Origin: a virus
Taxonomy: Duplodnaviria > Caudoviricetes
Length of the DNA: 25,702 nt
IMG/VR virus record: IMGVR_UViG_3300030613_000030
Span: 1-25,702 of that record
Direction: 5' to 3' (one strand)
Shown: positions 1,983 to 25,702 of the stretch, piece after piece
Numbering within the stretch: position 1 is the stretch's first letter
Layout: every line of letters starts with the position of its first letter
Position numbers and translations under genes: made by a program
The notes under the pieces: model-generated
Told to the model about the DNA's origin: nothing
The model's input: the letters and a program-made list of their open reading frames with translations, nothing else
Databases searched by the model: none

Positions 1983-3632
1983 ATGACCAAGACCAAGAGC
2001 AGCGAGAAGGTTACCAAGGAGAGTTTGCTGGCCGAGTATGAGCGCGTCGAGGGCCCGGCGTGGGCCGAGTACAAGCGCGTCCGGGACCCGGCGTTGGCCG
2101 AGTACAAGCGCGTCGAGGGCCCGGCGTGGGACGAGTACGAGCGCGTCGAAGGCCCGGCTCTGGCCGAGTATGAGCGCACCAAGGGCCTGGCATGGGCCGA
2201 GTACCAGCGCGTCACGGGCCTGGCGTTGGCTGAGTACGAGCGCATCACGAGCCCGGCGTTGGCTGAGTACGAGCGCATCAAGGGCCCGGCGTGGGACGAG
2301 TACAAGCGCGTCCAGGGCCCGGCGTTGGCCGAGTACAAGCGCAAGCTCGCCCTGCCGCTCGTGTCCGAGCCAGTGGCGGATTGCTCACGAAGAGGTGTGC
2401 ACATGAAATCCTACTCGATGGTTCGTGAGCGTCCCGCCGACTCCGACGACTTCGTGGTCGTTCCCGACCTCGGTGGCGGGCAACGTGGCACCGGCAACAT
2501 GATCATTCACGGCGAGAACTCGCTCGTTCTCGCTGGTATCGCTGAGAGACTCAGAGGGGCCGTTCGCTGCATCTACATTGATCCGCCCTACAACAATCAG
2601 GAGCGCTACTTCCACTACGATGATGCGCGGTCTCACGAGGAGTGGATTGCCGACCTCAAGAGCCGCCTTGAGCAGCTTGCCCCGCTTCTCAGGGGGGACG
2701 GAAGCATCTGGATCTCCATAGACGACAGAGAGGTCCATTACCTGAAGGTCGCTGCTGATCAGGTCTTCGGTCGCGAGAACTTCGTCACGACGGTCATCTG
2801 GCAGCAGCGCACCACCCGTGAGAACCGTAGGGCGTTCTCGAACAACCATGAATACCTGCTCGTGTACGCGCGGGATGTGAAGCAGTTTCGCGACTCTCGA
2901 AACCCGCTTCCCACGACGGCAGAAGTGCTGAGCCGCTACAAGAACCCGGACGGTGACCCGCGCGGGCCATGGCAATCGGTCTCAGCCAATGTGCAGGGGG
3001 GGCACGGAACCGCATCGCAGTTCTACGTCCTTGTCGCGCCTAACGGCCGCAGGCACGAGCCGCCGAGGGGCCGATGCTGGATCTACACCGAGGAGCGGAT
3101 GAGCCGAGAGGTCCGCGAGAACAGGGTGTGGTTCGGTCGCGATGGCAATGGCGCTCCTAGGCTGAAGCGTTTCTTGACCGGCGCCGCTGGACTCACACCC
3201 GAGACTCTCTGGTTCGCGTCCGATGTGGGCACGAACGACTCAGCGAAGAAGCACCTCCTGAACCTGTTCCCCGACGCCGCGGTGTTCGAGACACCGAAAC
3301 CGGAGAACCTCATAGCTCGGGTTCTCCAGATAGCGACGAACGAGGGCGACTTGGTCCTCGACGCCTATCTTGGATCCGGCACCACGGCCGCAGTCGCGCA
3401 CAAGATGGGTCGGCGGTACGTCGGTATCGAGAGCGGCGCGCACGCCGTCACGCACTGTGCGACGCGGTTGCGCGCCGTCGTGAGCGGTGAGGCGGGAGGG
3501 ATCTCGGCGGCGGTCGGGTGGGTGGGTGGGCGCGGCTTCGACTTCTATCGAGTCGGCGAGCCCGTCCGCCTGAAGGCTGTGCCTGGGAGTGGCTTGCGTG
3601 GCCGTCACGGACGGCGCTCGACGCGACGCTAG
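1983..3632 (+). CDS. Fusion of hendecad-repeat protein (N-terminal ~124 aa) and beta-class amino (N6-A/N4-C) DNA methyltransferase
   Basis: Single open frame with 9.5 AEYxRVxGPA repeats followed by MTase motifs IYIDPPYN and VLDAYLGSGTTAAVAHKMGRRYVGIE. The fusion was created by the insertion at 2349-2355. Confidence 0.85.
   Translation: MTKTKSSEKVTKESLLAEYERVEGPAWAEYKRVRDPALAEYKRVEGPAWDEYERVEGPALAEYERTKGLAWAEYQRVTGLALAEYERITSPALAEYERIKGPAWDEYKRVQGPALAEYKRKLALPLVSEPVADCSRRGVHMKSYSMVRERPADSDDFVVVPDLGGGQRGTGNMIIHGENSLVLAGIAERLRGAVRCIYIDPPYNNQERYFHYDDARSHEEWIADLKSRLEQLAPLLRGDGSIWISIDDREVHYLKVAADQVFGRENFVTTVIWQQRTTRENRRAFSNNHEYLLVYARDVKQFRDSRNPLPTTAEVLSRYKNPDGDPRGPWQSVSANVQGGHGTASQFYVLVAPNGRRHEPPRGRCWIYTEERMSREVRENRVWFGRDGNGAPRLKRFLTGAAGLTPETLWFASDVGTNDSAKKHLLNLFPDAAVFETPKPENLIARVLQIATNEGDLVLDAYLGSGTTAAVAHKMGRRYVGIESGAHAVTHCATRLRAVVSGEAGGISAAVGWVGGRGFDFYRVGEPVRLKAVPGSGLRGRHGRRSTRR
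2031..2342 (+). repeat. Second coding tandem array, 9 full plus one partial 33-bp unit, same family as 55-351
   Basis: GCCGAGTA/GCTGAGTA/GACGAGTA recurs every 33 bp from 2031. The partial unit is at 2328-2342. Confidence 0.95.
2349..2355 (+). repeat. Left copy of 7-bp direct repeat GCCCTGC
   Basis: Read directly. It lies just after the last repeat unit, in frame as GCC CTG C. Confidence 0.75.
2403..3632 (+). CDS. Site-specific DNA methyltransferase, beta class (type III Mod-like architecture), native start
   Basis: GAGGTG RBS then ATG 2403, in frame with 1983. Motif order is DPPY (IV), target-recognition region, TPKPE, then the YLGSG SAM-binding motif (I). Confidence 0.85.
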   Translation: MKSYSMVRERPADSDDFVVVPDLGGGQRGTGNMIIHGENSLVLAGIAERLRGAVRCIYIDPPYNNQERYFHYDDARSHEEWIADLKSRLEQLAPLLRGDGSIWISIDDREVHYLKVAADQVFGRENFVTTVIWQQRTTRENRRAFSNNHEYLLVYARDVKQFRDSRNPLPTTAEVLSRYKNPDGDPRGPWQSVSANVQGGHGTASQFYVLVAPNGRRHEPPRGRCWIYTEERMSREVRENRVWFGRDGNGAPRLKRFLTGAAGLTPETLWFASDVGTNDSAKKHLLNLFPDAAVFETPKPENLIARVLQIATNEGDLVLDAYLGSGTTAAVAHKMGRRYVGIESGAHAVTHCATRLRAVVSGEAGGISAAVGWVGGRGFDFYRVGEPVRLKAVPGSGLRGRHGRRSTRR

Positions 3633-3652
3633 CCGCATGTCGGGACAGTCTC

Positions 3653-4405
3653 ATGGCGCGGCGGAGGACCCCAGTCGGCGCGCGGGCGCGGGTACTCATC
3701 GACGGCGAGTTCGGCCTCCTGGTGGGCGCCGTGCTCGAGGAGTTCGAGCGCAAGACGCACCTGGTCGAGTGGAAGTACGACCCGCGCTTCCGCACGGTGG
3801 AGGCATGGGACTTCGGCTTCCGCCGCCCGGCCGTCCTCTGGGCGCAGCACCTGCCGGAGGGGACGTCCATCCCGGGGCGCGGAGCCGCTCCTCGCGGCGG
3901 CGCCTACGTCCTCTTCGACGAGCTCGTCCGCGACAACGTCACCACCGAGGTGGCGGCGCTGGAAGCGAAGCAGCGCGGCTACCGGGTTGAAAGGATCTAC
4001 TGCGACCCGGCCGGCGACGGGACGCAGTCGGCGAACGGGCTGTCGGACGTCTCGGTGCTGAAGAGCACGCGGTGCGGCGCAGGTGGCCCGCAGGTCCGGT
4101 TCACGACGGAGCCTCGGCTCCGCCACATCCCGTTTGGCGTCTCGCTCCTTCGCGGGATGCTGCGCAACGCCCTCGGCGAGACGCGGCTGTGGGTGGCGAA
4201 GTCGCTCGACAAGCCGAAGCAGGCGCGCGGGGTCGTCAAGGACTTCGAGGGCTACGCCTATCCCGAGGCCAAGGACGGCCGGCCGGTGGGCGACGTGCCG
4301 CTCAAGGACGGCCTGCACGATCACGTCGTAGACGCCTGTCGCTACTTCGCCATCGGCGAGCACGTCGCGACCGGCCAGCTCGTCGAGTCGCACCAGGTCC
4401 GCTGA
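3653..4405 (+). pseudogene. terL: 5'-truncated phage terminase large subunit: C-terminal RNase H-like nuclease domain only, still an open 250-aa frame
   Basis: Linker VLIDGEFG..GAV.EEF followed by AWDFGF, LFDE, IYCDPAG and KDGLHDHVVDACRY motifs typical of TerL nuclease domains. There is no Walker A/B ATPase region upstream. Confidence 0.8.
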
Positions 4406-4413
4406 GAGGTCCC

Positions 4414-4791
4414 ATGGCCCAGGTCTCCGCAGCGCCCATCGACATGGCGGCGGCCGCGGCACTCGATCGCCTGTGGGCCCAGGCCGAGGAGGCCGACCTC
4501 GAGAGCTTCCCGGTGGTCCTGCTCGACCTGCCGGCGCACGTCGCCCTGAGGCTCGACGTCCGGCGGGTGAGCCGGGTCATGTTCCGGGTCGTCGCCGGGC
4601 TGCGGCCGCGCGGTCTGCCGCTCTGGTGGGTGCGGGAGAAGTTCCAGGCCATGGGCCTGCCGGTGCCGATCGCCGAGGCCATCGAGCGCCACTTCTCGCA
4701 CCACAGGCTCTGCCGCCTCAGCGGCGGCGAGTTCCGCGCCATCGTCGCCCCAGGCGACTGGACCCGCCTAGCCGCGGAGAAGGCCTCCTGA
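4414..4791 (+). CDS. Hypothetical protein, 125 aa (gene that followed terL in the donor)
   Basis: GAGAGGT RBS and ATG 4414. Strong GC3 codon pattern like the terL fragment. Confidence 0.7.
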   Translation: MAQVSAAPIDMAAAAALDRLWAQAEEADLESFPVVLLDLPAHVALRLDVRRVSRVMFRVVAGLRPRGLPLWWVREKFQAMGLPVPIAEAIERHFSHHRLCRLSGGEFRAIVAPGDWTRLAAEKAS

Positions 4792-4913
4792 TGACGCCGT
4801 TCAACTTCACCGGCGGAAAGGAAGCCGCCGCGGGGGAGACTGACGGTGCGCGAGGTCCTCGTACCCCGCCAGGCGGCATCGGCCAGTTCGTTCCTGCCCT
4901 GCTCGACGAGTAG
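4791..4913 (+). pseudogene. Chimeric 40-aa remnant: start of a donor gene (possibly portal) ending in the displaced ALLDE-stop of the repeat gene
   Basis: TGATG coupling at 4789-4793 and an in-frame GCC CTG CTC GAC GAG TAG end. Portal identity is inferred only from its position after terL. Confidence 0.45.
4896..4902 (+). repeat. Right copy of 7-bp direct repeat GCCCTGC
   Basis: Read directly. It is followed by TC GAC GAG TAG and then the next promoter. Confidence 0.75.
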
Positions 4914-4916
4914 GAC

Positions 4917-4951
4917 TTGACATCCTCCCATAGCTCTGGTACACTGTTTAT
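4917..4951 (+). promoter_or_regulatory. Sigma70-type leaderless promoter
   Basis: TTGACA (4917-4922), 17 nt, TG-g-TACACT (4940-4945), 6 nt, ATG 4952. Confidence 0.85.
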
Positions 4952-5224
4952 ATGACCCGAGTCAACATCCGCGCCATCTTGGCAGACCCAGACATACGCA
5001 GGAGACTCATGGCCGACTCAGTTATTGCCCTCCAGGCTCGCGAAGAGGTCATGACGACCCAGGTGCAGGCCGAGGCTGCCTACGACAAGGTTCGAGCAGA
5101 GCGTCTGCTGTTGACCTCCAAGTCGAAGAAGAAGGCGCTCGTCCCCGGCGTCGAGGCGGTGGTCGAGTACGCCACCGAGGACAACTCCGGCGGCGAGAGG
5201 CCTATCTCCCTGGTGAAGTCGTGA
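4952..5224 (+). CDS. Hypothetical helical protein, 90 aa
   Basis: ATG directly at the predicted transcription start. The stop overlaps the next GTG (GTGA). Confidence 0.8.
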   Translation: MTRVNIRAILADPDIRRRLMADSVIALQAREEVMTTQVQAEAAYDKVRAERLLLTSKSKKKALVPGVEAVVEYATEDNSGGERPISLVKS

Positions 5225-15350: not shown

Positions 15351-18300
15351 CTATGCTCCGATAAAGCTGACGAGCACATCGTTTGAGGGGTCCAAAATCA
15401 ATGCCTTCTCATGAGGCTGTACCGGGATAGTATCGGCGCTCGTGGTAGCTACGGGGCTCAACATGACCACTGAGGTGACTCCGTCGACTTCACGAACAGC
15501 GGCACTGACAGAAGAGATGTCAATAGGACCCGGAGTGGCCGAGTTGACTACCTTAGCGACAGCCGCTTGAACGCGGGCCACCACGTCGACAGCGCCTGAG
15601 CGTGCTCGAATAGCTAGCGAAACGATGATGCGGCGAATAAGTGGAGCCGACACGTCTATAGCTGCGCCAGCCGAGGCAACACCGGGGTAGGTGACAACGT
15701 CTCGCTCGTCGCCGTAGATAACCCGAGTGACCTCGGCGATGAGACCCGTATTGTAGCGGTAACCGTCTTGGCCCGGTACAAGGGTGGTCGGGAACGATAG
15801 CTTGTCTTGTAGTGTCAGTACCGACCCTGCCACAGCAGAGAAGTGCTCTGCGTTGACTACCGGCAGCAGGCCTAGGACCGTCTGCCCAACGTGCAGGTCG
15901 TCGGTTACTACGGAGCGTACGTTATAGAGCATTCGAGACGGTTTTTCTGCGAGCACGGTTACTAGTGGTAGCGAAGTGCCTAGCGCGCCAGAGACCCAGG
16001 AGGCGCCTCCTTCGATAGTGAACTTGGTGCGATTGTACAGGTCAACAGACAAAACCTTGTAGTTTCCTTGCGGGGCCGTGCCCAGAACTGCCGACGAAAC
16101 TCGTAGCGAATCGTTAGGTAGTACGGAATTGTAGGTGTAAAAAGCAACGTACCCGTAGTCGTGCAGACCTGGCTGGGCGTTGGGCGCCTCAACCATCAGC
16201 CGCTCAGTGCTGACGTTCAGCAGGCGGAACGTACCAATATTGCCGGCGGGAGCAGCTAGCAGACTGGAGTCATACTTGTCGGTGGCTGTAGATGCCACAC
16301 CCGCAGTCGAAGTGCTCTCAGAGACGATGACTTCACTGCCTGAAACTAGCAGGGCTGGTGCATACAGATGGGGGTTGATGGTGGCGGAAGCAAAACCCCA
16401 GGTGCCGGTGGTGGTGGTGAAGACTTCTACCGAGCGCTGAGCTAGAATGGCTGGCGCACCAACGCTCGGTAGGGCGGCGAGTCCACCCCATACGATGGCT
16501 AAGCCGTTCGGAATTGCTGCTCCGGAGGCAGCCGAGCGAGGAATCTGCATAGAACTCGCAGCAACAACGGTATTGGTCGAGGTGTCGTAAATCTCGCAGG
16601 TAGCCTTGGGGTTGGTCCATGTGTTAGCATCCACAGACGCTTCAGCGGTCGAGCCGCCAGCCACCAAGAAGGAGGCCGGAGACAATGCCACTACTGCGTG
16701 GCCGATGCGCGTGGCTCCAGCATCAATCCCGAAAGCGGTGTCTGCCATCCAGACAACGGCTGGGAGCGAGAAGGTCTCATATCCAGTGCCAGCACCACCA
16801 GCGCCACCGATAACTAGCAACTGGTCAGAGCCGTAGGCTTGGGCATGATGCCCACCACGCGCGTGAGCCATAGTCGGTCCAGCAACACAAGCGGAGGCAT
16901 CTAGGTTATAGATGTCCAGGGTGTTGGTGAACGTGGTTGCGGTAGTGGCTCCGCCCACTACCAACACTTCGCCTGTCGACATGACGGTCATCGTATGGTG
17001 CGAGCGAGCGACGTTCAATGTGGCCACACCGACAGCGGTCCAGAGGTTTGTGGAGGGGTCGTACACATAAGCGTCGGTGTGCCAAGCCAGGGCACCCGTC
17101 GAAAGGCCGCCCGCAAAGAGAACTTTGCCGGAAGCTAGCTTGACTGCCGCGCCGAAAGCCCTAGCCGCAGGCAGTACAGCCATCGCAGCCCACGAATCGG
17201 TGCTAGGCGTGTAGGCTTCAACAGCGTTGCTAGCCGCGCCTGTGGCCAAGTTGTGTCTATCCAGCCCGCCAATAGCCAGGACGCGACCATCGTTCAGGGT
17301 GACATACGAAGCGCCGACCACGGCCACAGTTCTGGCTCCAGCAACCTTCCACTTGCCGAGTCCTGGCTCAAAGTGCACCCAAGCTCCGCTGCCAGTCAAG
17401 GTGGGGGCATTGATAGCTGGATAGACCGTTTGGAACTTGCCGGCATTGTCCCAGAGCCACTGTGTCCCGAAACTGGGGTCGACAGGGAACGTCCAAGCTG
17501 AGCCAGCTACGCCGACAGTAACTACGCCCGTTGCGGCGGTCAAAGTAGTTGCGGCGGTCCAGTCTAGAATCTTAGGAAGGGCTACAGCATTGTCGAGGAT
17601 AGCGTAGGCGCGATTCGAGATGGTCTCGATGTTGTCGGTAGTGACGACCGAGGCTGAAATAGCTGTTCCCGAGTTAACTCCCTGTAGAACAGTGAAGCGG
17701 ACGTCGTTAGCAGTGCCGCCAGCTACTTGGACCGCTCCAAGTGAACCTAAGGTGCCAGTAGCAAGCTGCACCCGGTGACCGCTCGAAGAAGCCTGGATTG
17801 AGGCGCCGGTCGAGGCTAGTCCGGTGACCTGACCACGATTCAGGTAATCGGCTACGTTCTTGGAGGTCGTAGGGGCTAGGCGGAACTCTTCGTTAGCCCA
17901 GTCATTGGGGACGGCAGCAAGGGTTGCGTCGGGAGCGAGCTTTAGGGTGATGTCGTAATTAAGGACGCCCACGTTGTAGGCCGCGGAGGAAATATGTAGA
18001 GTGCTGTCGGCGATGATAGCCTGAAGAAGGGTGCCATCCACCTGTGAAATGACGCCGGTGCCGGGGCCACCAGCCAAAGTGGCGGTGACAGAGGAGGTTG
18101 CCAGAGCGTTAATAGCGGCTAGGACCGCATTCGTGGTGTTGGCGGTGAGAGGGTAGAATGACAGGTCCGTTGCGGCGACGACAGTCTTCCAGGCGGAGGT
18201 TAATGTGGTAGCTGCAAACTCGACCCAGTAGAGCGGGGTAGCGACCGGAATTGCGGTAACGCGCAGACGTGACACAGAGTCACTTAGAGCATCAACGACA

Positions 18301-21300
18301 GTCCAGTAAGCGGTGGAGGAAGCGGGCAGGGAAAGTAGGTCACCAACAACGGCACCAGTGAAATCTGTGGGGGTGGCTTGCTTGGAAACATAGGCACCAA
18401 CCACGCTACCACCAACAGCAGCGCCAGCCTCGGTATAGGTGAAGGTGTCGTTCGTGAAGATGGTGGTTGCGACGCCAACAATGGTCTTGAGACCGGAAGG
18501 GAAGTTGACGTCAGTCGTGTTGACATAGACCACGCCGGCTGGAGCGAGGTAGCTGCTAGTAACGGTAGCGGTCGGCTGGGTCAGAGTGACAGTGACCGTG
18601 GCTCCAGCCCGAACAATAGAGGTGAGCGCAAAGGCTGACACAAGGGTTGTTGCTGTCCCAGCGCCTGACTGAGCCATCAGCAACCCGTCACCGACAGTGA
18701 AGGTAATGGCTCTGGCAGCGCCGGAGGCGAGGTAGACCGATACGTCGCCTAGAGGTAGAACGTTCTTGACGCTCAGGGTGGCTGAAGCTGTCAAGGGCGC
18801 ACGCAAGGTCATGTGCTGGGTGTCGTCGCGGCCACACCAGGACTTTAGTCGGAGAAGTAGAGTATCAGTGCTGCCAGGCTGAGTCGCTGACAGGTCGAAG
18901 CGGCTTCGTCCGTGCGCGTGCAGGGCGAAGTTCGAGAAATCGAAGGTCGTACCAAAGGCTGACGCCAAGGACTGGGGTACGCCACCTACGAGATTGTCAC
19001 CATCAGTCAAGCGCAAGCTAGCTCCGTACGGAACCGCTGCGTCTACCTTGAGCCATCGGGTCATCGGGACCGTGTAACCCTTGGTGACTGGGTCGCTGTC
19101 GAAGACCACGCTCAAAGAAGAGAGAGGACCGACACGGAAGCGAGAGGTAATCGCCATCAGGTCGATTGCGGGGCGGGCTGGGGCCAGGAGGTGGTCGAGA
19201 ACCGGATTGGTGGCGGCAGTAGAGGTCCACTCGGCCTTATCGCCAGCATTGGTTCCCCAACTGGGGACGGTAACGGTAGGCTTAGAGAGTAGCCAGAGAG
19301 CGCCTTCGATAAATCCGCTCTTGGCCCGAGACACGTTGGCTAGGGTGCTGCCGATGGTTAGCGGAGGTGTGAAGGACGCTACGGCGAAGCTCTCGACGGT
19401 GTTAGGGGTGCCGATTTCAGAGTTACCAGATTGGACAGCCGCCGCCTCAGGCTCGTCGCTTTGGATAGCAGAACCCACCAAGAAGCCGAGCGTACTGGCC
19501 GCGGATAGGTCCTGGGCAGACAAGGCGATGTCGCCTGTGGAGGCGTAGGTGTTCGTGGTGAGGCGCAGATGCGAAGTTTGGATGGAAGCGGTTGCTCCAA
19601 TCGGCAGGATAGCTGCGACAAGCTGAGCCTGGGTGTAGACCCCCGCGGCTAGACCAATTTGCTGAGGCACCGCAATCGTCCGAACGAAGTATAGCCGGTT
19701 GAAGACCGATTTGGTGGGGTCGTTGAGGCTGTTGCCAGCGCCGGCAGTTGCGTAGTCGCACTTGAACCACGTTCCGGCCGGGTCAACGCTCGATACTCGC
19801 ATCATCGAGTAGGTGACTGGGGCGCCACCAAATCCGCCCCAAGCGTCTTGAGACCAGATAGCCATATCGCCAACCTGTACGTTGGTGAAGCAGGGCACGA
19901 ATGCAGCCCCGCTCCAAGCCCAGAAGGCACGGTCAGTAGCGGTCCAATACTGGTGGACTTGATGGGAAGCGTTCAGAGTGTGGGGTACGGCTACTGCTGT
20001 GCCATCGACCGTCAACCACAGGTTGAGGCCGCCAACTGGCACGGTGACGGTGGCCCCGAGGGAAATCGACTGGATATACCCGCGAGTGAAGGACGTTCCA
20101 GCGGTTAGCTTGTCACCAGCCACTAGCGCATATGTCAAATCAATCTGGCCCCGATTGCGGTCCAGGACGTAATCAGCACCGCGTCCTTGAGCAGTCAACG
20201 CTAGAGCATTGAAGAGGCCTTTGATGGACATGGAGCAGGACGGGTCGATAGAGACGCTGGCACGGACAGAGAGACCTAGATTCGAGGTGAAAACCAGGCC
20301 ACCGCCCGAAACGGTGCAGGTGACCCCAGGAACCTTTGCATTGAAGATGGACGCCCAGGCAGACAGCGGTAGGGTAGAGGTTAGGGTCGCATAGCCGAGG
20401 CCTAGAGCGATAGCGTCCGCATCGGTGAAGGTGTAGGTGCTGTAGGGAGTACCGTCGACCGAAACGATTAGTGTCTCTCCCGAGACCATTGAGGTCCACA
20501 GTGTTTGGTCGTTGGACGCCAGCGAAGCTATCTGGCCATCCTTCGAGAGGAGGTAGTCGTTCTTGTAGAGGCGAAGAGCGTCCACTCGCCCACCCGGGAA
20601 TAGCAAAGCGAGGTTGGCATCGGTGCCAGCAGGGGTCGCTATGACCTCGATATCGTCGTTAACGTTGGCCTTCGCGAAGATAGCCACGTAGGTACCCGCA
20701 CCAGTAGTGCGAGCGGAGAAGGGAATTACAGGATTCGAGTTGATGCTGGCCGTGACTTCGTAGGCGGTGGCGTTGGTGATGTCGCCGAAGCTGCCGACAA
20801 CGAAGGTGTGCGTATAGGTGACGCCGCCAACCTTCACGGTCAGAGTAGCCTGGTCTGATAGGGCGTAGGGGGCAGCCTGTACCGTGAGTAGGCTGGCCTT
20901 AGCAACCGGCTGGCCGTGATTCAGGAAGAAAATGTCCTCTCCGCCAACAGCCGAGTCCATAACGACCTCGTAGGCGATTCCAGAGTCCTTAGCTTCGTAC
21001 CCGGTTCCGTCGTCGATGACCAGCAAGGAGGGCAGGGTAGAGCGATTAACGTACTGCGAAGAAATGACTGTGGCAGATTCGTCTGGCGCCTTGACGCCAT
21101 ACGAAAACACGTTGAGGCCTAGAGTGGTGCCAACTCCATATCGAGAGCGTCGAGCAGCTTTGATGCGCTCGCGGTAGAGGTCGTCGTTTTCAACGTCTTG
21201 ACCATTGGTGATAGGGAGGGGATTGGTTACAGCCAGGCCCGCGAAAGCGGGTGAGGTAACCACTTTGATGCCGGCAGCGGAAGCGTTGCCGTCTGCACCC

Positions 21301-22019
21301 GGGACCTGACTGGACACGGGGACGTTTGCGATGAGGGTCTCGCCGTCGAGGATAGTGGCAGATGAGGTAGTGACGAAGGTAGCTGCGGTGCCCTGGTTAC
21401 CTACGGGGGTTCCGACAACTTGACCTGTAGCGATGATGCGGTCGCCACCTTGAGCTAGGGTGACCGTCTCACCAAGCCCATGAAAATTTGTGGTCGGGGC
21501 AGTGAGGGTGATGGTCCAGTACGCGCCGACGTTCGCCTTGGCGTTGTAGGTTAGGGGGCCTTCAAGATTGGGAGTGCCGCGACCCAAGAACACACTACCA
21601 GTTGCGGTGAAGAGGGTGGCATCAGCTACATAGATGGTGGTGCTCCCAGGAATTGGAGCGGCCTTGCCTTGATACACACGGGAAGTGATTTTGGTGAAGC
21701 CAGTATCTGATAGGTTAACAAGTCCGGAGGCGAAGGTCGCTCCGCGACGAGGAAGCCTCTCGGCTACGCCGATGCGGTCTAGGCGCTCGCCGTGTTCTTG
21801 GTCCAAATCATTCGCGTCAAGGAGAGAAAGGGTCTGTTCCTGCCCGCGGAACTGACTTTGACCTACCGCCTCAAAAATCGCTAGATACGGAGACCCCGGC
21901 TTGAGTGATTGGATTCCGGGAACAATACCCTTGGTATCTAGCTCGCTCAGGAATGAGCTAACCATCGACCCGACGAGTTGGTTCAGAGAATGGAAGACGG
22001 GTACGGACGAAGTGGCCAT
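15351..22019 (-). CDS. Giant baseplate J-like protein (2222 aa) with internal Kelch beta-propeller
   Basis: N-terminal baseplate-J motifs (GE.LDR.G....L.R.GAT.A.G; G.DGN; TNG.D.E.DD.YR.RI) and a C-terminal J-like end (V.EVDGV.SV). ATG 22019 is preferred over GTG 22025. Confidence 0.85.
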   Translation of the reverse strand: MATSSVPVFHSLNQLVGSMVSSFLSELDTKGIVPGIQSLKPGSPYLAIFEAVGQSQFRGQEQTLSLLDANDLDQEHGERLDRIGVAERLPRRGATFASGLVNLSDTGFTKITSRVYQGKAAPIPGSTTIYVADATLFTATGSVFLGRGTPNLEGPLTYNAKANVGAYWTITLTAPTTNFHGLGETVTLAQGGDRIIATGQVVGTPVGNQGTAATFVTTSSATILDGETLIANVPVSSQVPGADGNASAAGIKVVTSPAFAGLAVTNPLPITNGQDVENDDLYRERIKAARRSRYGVGTTLGLNVFSYGVKAPDESATVISSQYVNRSTLPSLLVIDDGTGYEAKDSGIAYEVVMDSAVGGEDIFFLNHGQPVAKASLLTVQAAPYALSDQATLTVKVGGVTYTHTFVVGSFGDITNATAYEVTASINSNPVIPFSARTTGAGTYVAIFAKANVNDDIEVIATPAGTDANLALLFPGGRVDALRLYKNDYLLSKDGQIASLASNDQTLWTSMVSGETLIVSVDGTPYSTYTFTDADAIALGLGYATLTSTLPLSAWASIFNAKVPGVTCTVSGGGLVFTSNLGLSVRASVSIDPSCSMSIKGLFNALALTAQGRGADYVLDRNRGQIDLTYALVAGDKLTAGTSFTRGYIQSISLGATVTVPVGGLNLWLTVDGTAVAVPHTLNASHQVHQYWTATDRAFWAWSGAAFVPCFTNVQVGDMAIWSQDAWGGFGGAPVTYSMMRVSSVDPAGTWFKCDYATAGAGNSLNDPTKSVFNRLYFVRTIAVPQQIGLAAGVYTQAQLVAAILPIGATASIQTSHLRLTTNTYASTGDIALSAQDLSAASTLGFLVGSAIQSDEPEAAAVQSGNSEIGTPNTVESFAVASFTPPLTIGSTLANVSRAKSGFIEGALWLLSKPTVTVPSWGTNAGDKAEWTSTAATNPVLDHLLAPARPAIDLMAITSRFRVGPLSSLSVVFDSDPVTKGYTVPMTRWLKVDAAVPYGASLRLTDGDNLVGGVPQSLASAFGTTFDFSNFALHAHGRSRFDLSATQPGSTDTLLLRLKSWCGRDDTQHMTLRAPLTASATLSVKNVLPLGDVSVYLASGAARAITFTVGDGLLMAQSGAGTATTLVSAFALTSIVRAGATVTVTLTQPTATVTSSYLAPAGVVYVNTTDVNFPSGLKTIVGVATTIFTNDTFTYTEAGAAVGGSVVGAYVSKQATPTDFTGAVVGDLLSLPASSTAYWTVVDALSDSVSRLRVTAIPVATPLYWVEFAATTLTSAWKTVVAATDLSFYPLTANTTNAVLAAINALATSSVTATLAGGPGTGVISQVDGTLLQAIIADSTLHISSAAYNVGVLNYDITLKLAPDATLAAVPNDWANEEFRLAPTTSKNVADYLNRGQVTGLASTGASIQASSSGHRVQLATGTLGSLGAVQVAGGTANDVRFTVLQGVNSGTAISASVVTTDNIETISNRAYAILDNAVALPKILDWTAATTLTAATGVVTVGVAGSAWTFPVDPSFGTQWLWDNAGKFQTVYPAINAPTLTGSGAWVHFEPGLGKWKVAGARTVAVVGASYVTLNDGRVLAIGGLDRHNLATGAASNAVEAYTPSTDSWAAMAVLPAARAFGAAVKLASGKVLFAGGLSTGALAWHTDAYVYDPSTNLWTAVGVATLNVARSHHTMTVMSTGEVLVVGGATTATTFTNTLDIYNLDASACVAGPTMAHARGGHHAQAYGSDQLLVIGGAGGAGTGYETFSLPAVVWMADTAFGIDAGATRIGHAVVALSPASFLVAGGSTAEASVDANTWTNPKATCEIYDTSTNTVVAASSMQIPRSAASGAAIPNGLAIVWGGLAALPSVGAPAILAQRSVEVFTTTTGTWGFASATINPHLYAPALLVSGSEVIVSESTSTAGVASTATDKYDSSLLAAPAGNIGTFRLLNVSTERLMVEAPNAQPGLHDYGYVAFYTYNSVLPNDSLRVSSAVLGTAPQGNYKVLSVDLYNRTKFTIEGGASWVSGALGTSLPLVTVLAEKPSRMLYNVRSVVTDDLHVGQTVLGLLPVVNAEHFSAVAGSVLTLQDKLSFPTTLVPGQDGYRYNTGLIAEVTRVIYGDERDVVTYPGVASAGAAIDVSAPLIRRIIVSLAIRARSGAVDVVARVQAAVAKVVNSATPGPIDISSVSAAVREVDGVTSVVMLSPVATTSADTIPVQPHEKALILDPSNDVLVSFIGA
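16270..17360 (-). repeat. Kelch repeats (about 6-7 blades) within the baseplate protein
   Basis: Repeated R.....L..G.VL..GG....YDP.T..W units, e.g. TLNDGRVLAIGG, KLASGKVLFAGG, MSTGEVLVVGG. Boundaries are approximate. Confidence 0.85.
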
Positions 22020-22066
22020 GAGCACAGTCCAATTATGAAGGGGGCGCTACAGGAGCCTGCTCCACC

Positions 22067-22074
22067 TAGATTAC
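22067..22074 (-). promoter_or_regulatory. Candidate late-promoter motif GTAATCTA
   Basis: Overlaps the HNH stop codon, ~48 nt upstream of the baseplate J start. Confidence 0.4.
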
Positions 22075-22688
22075 TTCCGCCAGTTGAGCTTGTCGCTCTT
22101 ACGGAGGTTGTCGATAGCCCACATCGGCTGTTGGTTGGTATAGTGGAGGACGGTTAGTAGCTGTTCACGGTTCGTGACGTCGATGCTGGCAAATGGAATG
22201 ATGTGGTCGATGTGCCAGCCGTGGACTCCGCGGTTGTCCCAGGTCATCTCTTCACCGGTAACTGGGTGTGGATAGAACCGAGCGGTCATGTGGGCTCGCC
22301 ATTCACCAATAGTACACCCAAGGTCCCGGACTGCTGAGCCGGCTTTATAGTTACCTCGGATAGCTGAGTTAAAACGAGAACGAAGGTCACGAATGAGTTT
22401 AAATTCCAGGTCAATAGCAAGGCGCCTCCTCACGTAAGCCGCCTTTGTAATTGCTATTTCCTCCTTATGAGAAACCACATAGACTGAGTGGGTAACTGCT
22501 ATTTCTTCTTTGTTGGCGGCATAGCGGGCCGACGCTTCTTCCTTGTGCGCTGCGTCGTAGGCTGAATGAGTAGCTAACACTTCTTCCTTGTTTGTCGCAT
22601 AATGAGCCGCGCTGCGAACCTTCCCGCAGGGTCTGCATTTGCCGCTAGGATATCGGTCCGTAGCTCCGCATTTTCGACAAGGCTTCAT
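22071..22688 (-). CDS. Free-standing HNH-type homing endonuclease
   Basis: N-terminal CxxC...CxxC, and C-terminal GSAVRDLGC...MTW.N.G..WHIDHI.P...HYTN.QP.WA.DNL.K. Confidence 0.85.
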   Translation of the reverse strand: MKPCRKCGATDRYPSGKCRPCGKVRSAAHYATNKEEVLATHSAYDAAHKEEASARYAANKEEIAVTHSVYVVSHKEEIAITKAAYVRRRLAIDLEFKLIRDLRSRFNSAIRGNYKAGSAVRDLGCTIGEWRAHMTARFYPHPVTGEEMTWDNRGVHGWHIDHIIPFASIDVTNREQLLTVLHYTNQQPMWAIDNLRKSDKLNWRK

Positions 22689-25183: not shown

Positions 25184-25372
25184 CTAGGTAACGGTGCCAG
25201 TACCCGTGCCGCCGCCAGCGGGGCAGGTGGTCGCGACGTTAACTACGCCCTGAGTCTGGATGTGGAGGACGATAGCGTTAGCGAGTTTCTCAAATGCCTT
25301 GCGGCGCTGTTTGTTCGTAACGCCGCCGATGGCGATGAGAATTTCCTGAGCAAGCTGGTCTCCGTTCATCAT
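25184..25372 (-). CDS. Small baseplate/spike-associated protein, 62 aa
   Basis: ATGA coupling to the upstream HNH stop. Helical N-terminus and a GGGTGTGTVT C-terminus. Function is inferred from context. Confidence 0.65.
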   Translation of the reverse strand: MMNGDQLAQEILIAIGGVTNKQRRKAFEKLANAIVLHIQTQGVVNVATTCPAGGGTGTGTVT

Positions 25373-25702
25373 ATTTTAGCGCCTTTCTTCAGATTGTCCG
25401 AAGCCCACAGCGGCTGAAGGTTCGTGTAGTGGAGAATAGGTAGTAGCTGTTCACGGTCTGTGACGTCGATGCTGGCAAATGGAATGACGTGGTCGATGTG
25501 CCAACCAGTTTTAGACCAGTTATCCCAGGTCATGTCAGGAAGGAACTTAGCTTCGAGGTATGTCTTGAACTCCTCAATAGTACACCCGAGGTCTCTTACG
25601 GCGGAGCCGGATTTGAAGTTACCTTTGATGGCCATATGGAGACGGCTGCGCATGTTTTTCGTTAGCTTATAAGCTGGGTCAAATTCGCGTCGCATCTTGC
25701 TA
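25369..25702 (-). CDS. Second HNH-type homing endonuclease, probably 5'-truncated by the window edge
   Basis: Same GSAVRDLGC / WHIDHV.P / HYTNLQPLWA motifs. The frame stays open to the window end. Confidence 0.85.
   Translation of the reverse strand, partial: SKMRREFDPAYKLTKNMRSRLHMAIKGNFKSGSAVRDLGCTIEEFKTYLEAKFLPDMTWDNWSKTGWHIDHVIPFASIDVTDREQLLPILHYTNLQPLWASDNLKKGAKI

Follow-up and report, generated by a model that had tools for sequence, protein, structure and literature searches.

The window, by which we mean the whole 25,702-base virus record analyzed here, carries baseplate, endolysin, exonuclease, dCMP deaminase, and dGTP diphosphohydrolase genes as annotated by profile search and appears to be part of a large tailed phage; statements about the phage refer to these 25.7 kb. 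Soil metagenome runs contain its sequence. The GC content is about 0.57 across most of the window and 0.64 to 0.73 over 2.8 to 4.8 kb. On the minus strand, two related endonuclease-like ORFs lie amid the baseplate genes (22071–22688, which matches the endonuclease VII family, and 25369–25695) and are possibly homing endonucleases, and a third stretch (15351–22025) encodes a 2224-aa protein with a baseplate-wedge-like N terminus and a repeat-rich C-terminal region.

The plus-strand gene that begins at 1983 encodes a resident protein built of 11-residue (33-bp) repeats, and it is the target of an insertion. Its 5′ part ends at 2355 with the left copy of a direct repeat, GCCCTGC (2349–2355), and its final codons and stop (4903–4913) follow directly on the right copy (4896–4902). 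The repeat is perfect over its 7 bp and cannot be extended in either direction, as for the direct repeat of a crossover core without loss of target. Excision of the intervening 2547 bases (2356–4902) restores a repeat-protein gene of 127 aa that ends at 4913. With the insert present, the 5′ part of the gene is in frame with a methyltransferase and forms a 549-aa ORF (1983–3632), and an identical 549-aa protein is encoded on a separate contig of 44,262 bases (P0143). At the other end, a portal gene start at 4791 reads in frame through to the last repeat-gene codons at 4913, so that both ends of the insert form in-frame fusions. Among 34 longer relatives of the repeat protein, no methylase domain is listed, which is weak evidence on fusions to other foreign enzymes. 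A second gene with 11-residue repeats lies at 1–408. TTGACA promoter-like sites precede both the interrupted gene (about 1947–1975) and the next phage gene (4914–4945, with the σ70-like promoter itself at 4917–4945 on the plus strand); the 4914–4945 stretch recurs in similar form at another locus in the same sample (X1 and X2), and loose contig ends fall at 4914 and 4945.

The insert begins with a 47-bp donor leader (2356–2402, plus strand) that places a Shine-Dalgarno-like GAGGTG directly before the ATG of a complete N6/N4 DNA methyltransferase of 409 aa (2403–3632, plus strand; Pfam PF01555, E 5e-47). The leader has no match longer than 13 bases in 81 loci. Its identity is 92% with P0023, a protein also of 409 aa that shares its start, and 76% with WP_242353924.1 of Anaeromyxobacter sp. 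SG64. No accompanying nuclease occurs within the 25.7 kb, so the phage shows the feature of an orphan methyltransferase. The 42 bp that follow (3633–3674, plus strand) contain an ATG at 3637 and lack terminase homology (p 0.80); the next donor gene possibly begins here and is broken off at the first internal junction.

At 3675, the sequence passes into the packaging genes of another phage, all on the plus strand: the 3′ part of a terminase large subunit of about 243 codons, including the nuclease domain (3675–4405; PHROG 2, E 4.5e-11), an ORF of 125 aa (4414–4791), and the first 16 codons of a portal gene (4791–4838). The terminase piece is 79 to 80% identical to that of locus L002, where a 62% identical counterpart of the 125-aa ORF likewise lies between terminase and portal, and the order of all three genes is the same. 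Compared with 22 portal relatives, homology ends at 4838, and the invariant portal residues R19, K28, and P29 are missing beyond that point. The packaging piece is thus cut at both ends, at about 3674/3675 and 4838/4839. Its genes have a GC3 of 0.92 to 0.94 (0.92 for the terminase piece), compared with 0.77 for the methyltransferase. The remaining 57 bases before the right repeat (4839–4895), on which the case for a circle depends, are orphans to which we assign no strand. A reading of them as diverged portal was rejected (DNA p 0.51, protein p 0.245), as was an imperfect direct or inverted repeat between 3633–3674 and the right end (p 0.20 and 0.34). The insert is therefore a mosaic in which an intact methyltransferase gene is combined with a doubly truncated packaging piece from another phage, apparently a temperate one, and its two internal junctions mean that it is not one continuous donor segment. 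Near 3684, the window and the X2 and X3 contigs lack a base that restores the terminase frame in X1, and the terminase piece therefore appears to be decaying.

Contigs from public runs (X1 to X5) were used to assess each junction, which we counted as bridged only by contigs with at least 31 letters on each side. Of the two outer junctions, the left is bridged in X4 and the right in X1 and X2; of the two internal ones, contigs of X1, X2, and X3 span that near 3674, and contigs of X1 and X5 that near 4838. X1 and X2 represent one sample, which may be the source of the record, and studies may share a site; three of the four junctions are bridged without differences by contigs from other studies (X3, X4, and X5). 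Contig depth in X1 is 8.8 to 9.7 on flanks and insert alike. All four junctions are bridged and, in X1, the depth of the insert is close to that of the phage itself; the insert is real DNA, and the foreign insertion is confirmed. Over the repeats, X1 depth rises to about 225, compared with 9 on unique sequence, so the repeat family has many copies in the phage or its relatives.

The uninterrupted state of the target may be visible in part. One X1 contig, possibly a paralogous copy of the repeat gene, passes from 2355 straight into the letters of 4903 onward, which confirms the native end of the target gene, and an X4 contig that begins at 4896 after seven unmatched letters would fit an empty allele. 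The empty site has no exact match among viral contigs, and the search for it returned no relative with the HD gene or the ORF at 4952. In a distant relative (L101), five flanking genes occur in the same order with neither methyltransferase nor terminase piece between them, and the repeat gene is missing too. Gene order over positions 1114–5503 of L101 is that of the host phage, and the slot between the ORF at 1697 and the deaminase gene is variable.

To place the methyltransferase, we compared 78 loci that carry a match to it, leaving out the record itself (L033) and its duplicate (L087) and keeping other near-duplicates; the enzymes at these loci are only about 55 to 74% identical. The relatives sit in two-methylase clusters, often with a third gene similar to that of L001, whose product we take to be a phospholipase-D-type nuclease; the L004 member has no Pfam match. 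A motif of the partner, a D12-class methylase, is recognizable in 56 of the 78 loci and in none of the other 22. The partner lies upstream in 55 of the 56, in tandem in 34 and divergently in 21, and downstream in the remaining one. Loci L001 to L077 show the cluster in tandem, divergent, and reversed layouts across many phyla, and in L085 and L086 no partner motif occurs within about 1.5 kb of the methyltransferase.

In the original prediction, the insert was read as circularly permuted, with the 3′ end of the gene preceding the methyltransferase divided, one part at each end of the insert. The sequence features on which this reading was built are present: GCCCTGC stands at both ends, joining 4840–4902 to 2356–2406 yields an open frame of 37 codons, a CxxC spans the join, and the TGA overlaps the methyltransferase ATG at 2403–2406 (ATGA). 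As proof of a circle, however, the joined frame fails, because among 10,000 shuffles of the 111 bases concerned, 44.5% leave it open by chance and 86.4% leave open one or more of the three frames. The other two frames are in fact open across the join as well, one from the portal ATG at 4791 directly into the methyltransferase and the other from 4844. It is the 7-bp core itself that encodes the first cysteine of the CxxC, and the ATGA, taken as a sign of operon coupling, follows from the Met-Lys start of the enzyme, which three of its five closest relatives have in common. The best coding-bias score of the joined frame is not significant under a codon model from the packaging genes (p 0.075 to 0.085), nor does the methyltransferase model improve on this (p 0.44 to 0.47).

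The split gene itself also finds no support, since the upstream partner at 55 of 56 loci is the D12-class methylase and the joined peptide scores below most shuffles against the D12 C terminus. The apparent resemblance of its end to that C terminus was rejected, 289 of 404 scored shuffles (500 given) being as good, and the peptide has no meaningful match in 32 loci. What stands of the circular-permutation reading is a foreign insertion with a clean 7-bp duplication, for which a single crossover with a circle is the leading explanation; the split upstream gene is not supported in an indirect test against relatives only about 55 to 74% identical. Nor can a circle made of one continuous donor segment be right, given that the packaging piece is cut at both ends (about 3675 and 4838); the portal start at 4791–4838 had been overlooked.

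Searches returned no close donor. For the methyltransferase, the best non-self matches in viral, genome, and metagenome collections were 56%, 70%, and 68%, respectively; 4 of 363 Myxococcales genomes matched (best 73%), and the 3 matches among 401 genomes of the phylum included nothing close. The terminase piece gave 2 weak matches in 301 genomes and the portal none in 368. Searched as a whole against phage and plasmid records, the insert matched only in short methylase stretches, in 3 records of each kind. Although the 57-bp piece had matches at E ≤0.01 in 51 of 363 Myxococcales genomes, the 10 loci inspected were unrelated genes and none extends across the join. A 35-residue frame (4798–4902) had no match in 1.84 billion proteins and no usable Atlas match, which is weak evidence for so short a query. 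None of seven packaging-module relatives carries this methyltransferase or its D12 partner, and no other joints of the insert occur among the matches listed from five runs, whose contigs show presence only.

Our preferred, if tentative, reading is a single entry event, in which a crossover at seven shared bases brought a small circle of host or prophage DNA into the phage, with the enzyme likely kept against restriction. The donor would have been an Anaeromyxobacter-like cell in which a single prophage or defence region housed both the methyltransferase and the packaging genes, in the assumed order of 57-bp piece, core, leader, methyltransferase, further genes, terminase, ORF, and portal. A loop-out that fused portal codon 16 with the 57-bp piece would then have set the circle free. 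Before or after integration, a deletion from 42 bp past the methyltransferase to mid-terminase would have removed the ATPase half, and a single illegitimate crossover at the 7-bp core would have placed the circle in the end of the repeat-protein gene, where it is in frame and brings its own ribosome-binding site. At somewhat under even confidence, we regard this as the simplest account of a clean duplication without a transposase, yet it costs one extra deletion. In its favor, one crossover at a short shared core would yield a loss-free 7-bp duplication, and a circle would explain the 57 orphan bases as the methyltransferase upstream region beyond the core, with no third donor. With the methylase upstream of the packaging genes, the donor would also be colinear after rotation. 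Against it, the model needs two internal junctions beside the crossover, and the joined frame is at chance level and matches nothing upstream of related enzymes. The commonest layout of the relatives (tandem, 34 of 56) predicts the C-terminal motif of the partner in these 104 bases, from which it is absent. A common donor region is moreover only assumed, considering the GC3 difference (0.77 versus 0.92 to 0.94) and the seven packaging loci devoid of the methyltransferase. A hairpin at the left junction was considered as a sign that the core is native to the donor leader and rejected; 10 of 200 shuffles fold as well, but so do 200 of 896 GC-matched 7-mers.

A less probable account dispenses with permutation altogether. 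Here, the donor would be colinear, with the leader, the methyltransferase, and a next gene that runs from 3637–3674 into 4839–4902 and may be the D12 partner methylase; the terminase-portal piece (3675–4838) would have inserted into this gene between two AG dinucleotides, in the host or by template switching at the time of capture, and the 7-bp duplication would stem from staggered-break repair or from a fork returning seven bases early. On this account, the native place of the 57 bases is downstream of the methyltransferase, and no permutation is involved. Excising 3675–4838 does open a frame from an ATG four bases past the methyltransferase stop into the frame of the earlier claim, both ends of the removed piece end in AG, and such an ATG with an open frame arises in 5.1% of shuffles. 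The first four residues of this frame are those of the L006 D12 protein, it agrees in length with the D12 leaders of L005, L006, and L036, and its final residues are similar to those ahead of the conserved D12 motif (position-weight p 0.0375); a methyltransferase-then-D12 layout exists in L034. This reading is post hoc and its tests are weak, however, and the circle model explains the ATG equally well. In the profile test, 416 of 2000 shuffles score as well, which is not significant, the log-odds of the end amount to only 0.3 bits, and the Arg of 43 of 44 D12 leaders is a Leu here. A downstream partner occurs in 1 of 56 loci, and two nested non-homologous insertions within 1.4 kb would be required.

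More doubtful still is that end joining or multi-template repair patched three unrelated fragments (methyltransferase, packaging, and 57-bp) into a single staggered break, with both 7-bp copies being target DNA. The two internal junctions and the differing codon use are in keeping with this, and illegitimate recombination and end joining have been proposed for gene flow between distant phages (PMC8136500), but four independent joins and a loss-free duplication would be needed. We consider it very unlikely that a transposase, an IS110-type recombinase, or an integrase acted in trans to mobilize the insert as a non-autonomous unit, even though 7 bp lies within the target duplication range of transposons (<10 bp; PMC2853133) and IS110 elements can move large cargo via circles (10.64898/2026.08.14.744561). 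No transposase or integrase is found among the ORFs of the insert, terminal inverted repeats are absent (4 of 15 positions), and a search of 363 Myxococcales genomes with the right end yielded nothing significant. Integrase att sites have dyad symmetry around the core and integron cassettes a GTTRRRY core; the insert has neither (1 of 10 and 2 of 10 positions for the former), it has no match in Rfam, and its non-coding ends comprise only 47 and 57 bases. Least credible of all is a chimera of assembly or amplification. The target is a multi-copy repeat gene whose depth in X1 climbs to about 225, only the X1/X2 sample, possibly the source, has contigs across the right junction, and the X1 and X2 contigs reach only 30 letters left of the left junction; against this stand the three junctions bridged without differences in other studies and the even depth across the insert in X1.

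The methyltransferase is the only intact, recognizable gene gained with the insert, and the contrast between this full-length enzyme and the truncated, frameshift-polymorphic terminase piece is expected if only the enzyme is under selection. By analogy with the phage methylases described in PMC4190342, the likely reason for retention of the insert is that the enzyme would protect phage DNA by methylation from a restriction system of the host. Virulent lactococcal phages have acquired orphan methyltransferases (the 936-type phages Phi93 and Phi145, and phi50 with LlaPI from plasmid pTR2030), for which protection from digestion was shown and non-homologous exchange with prophage sequence was suggested; packaging-module methylases have been described in other phages as well (PMC4190342). 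Similar to those cases, the window carries a restriction-modification-type methylase without a nuclease. Unlike them, the present locus still displays its junctions, the hitch-hiking packaging genes, and an in-frame fusion to a repeat protein, and its enzyme has a putative activity.

Other systems share individual features with this insert. Region B of wine yeast, a segment from Zygosaccharomyces bailii, likewise integrated without homology, with short microhomology at its breakpoints and a circle inferred from permutation (PMC3053389). That permutation was read from several differently opened copies of a circle able to replicate, however, whereas the phage holds a single copy, with no donor and no origin. 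Restriction-modification insertions with long target duplications also place methylase genes between direct repeats without a mobility gene (PMC2853133). That class comprises both R and M genes and repeats of >30 bp; the phage insert has M only, with no R gene, and a duplication of 7 bp. The locus also resembles phage-to-phage capture, in which the DNA of one phage type is taken up by a distant phage in a shared host, with both lifestyles in the present case inferred. Recombinase-driven homologous exchange does not fit, as there is no flanking homology beyond the 7 bp. Phages are already known to acquire methylases and the DNA of other phages by non-homologous routes (PMC4190342, PMC3945230, and PMC8136500), and whether phages gain genes without homology by illegitimate or by relaxed homologous recombination is debated (PMC3945230 and PMC8136500). 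No report of a phage capturing host DNA by circle crossover was found in the literature searched, most subscription papers lying outside its scope.

Overall, the capture appears real, recent, and well preserved, and a circle is likely but unproven. Without its donor, the insert is one more phage-borne methylase, a well-known kind. As a recent capture with all four junctions readable to the base, it is a testable case of gene gain without homology. A more speculative and doubtful generalization is that this large phage gains genes through small, non-replicating circles of host or prophage DNA by single crossovers at a few shared bases. Its multi-copy repeat genes would then serve as tolerant landing sites that supply expression, and the insert would be a fresh snapshot of this process, delivering an anti-restriction methylase.
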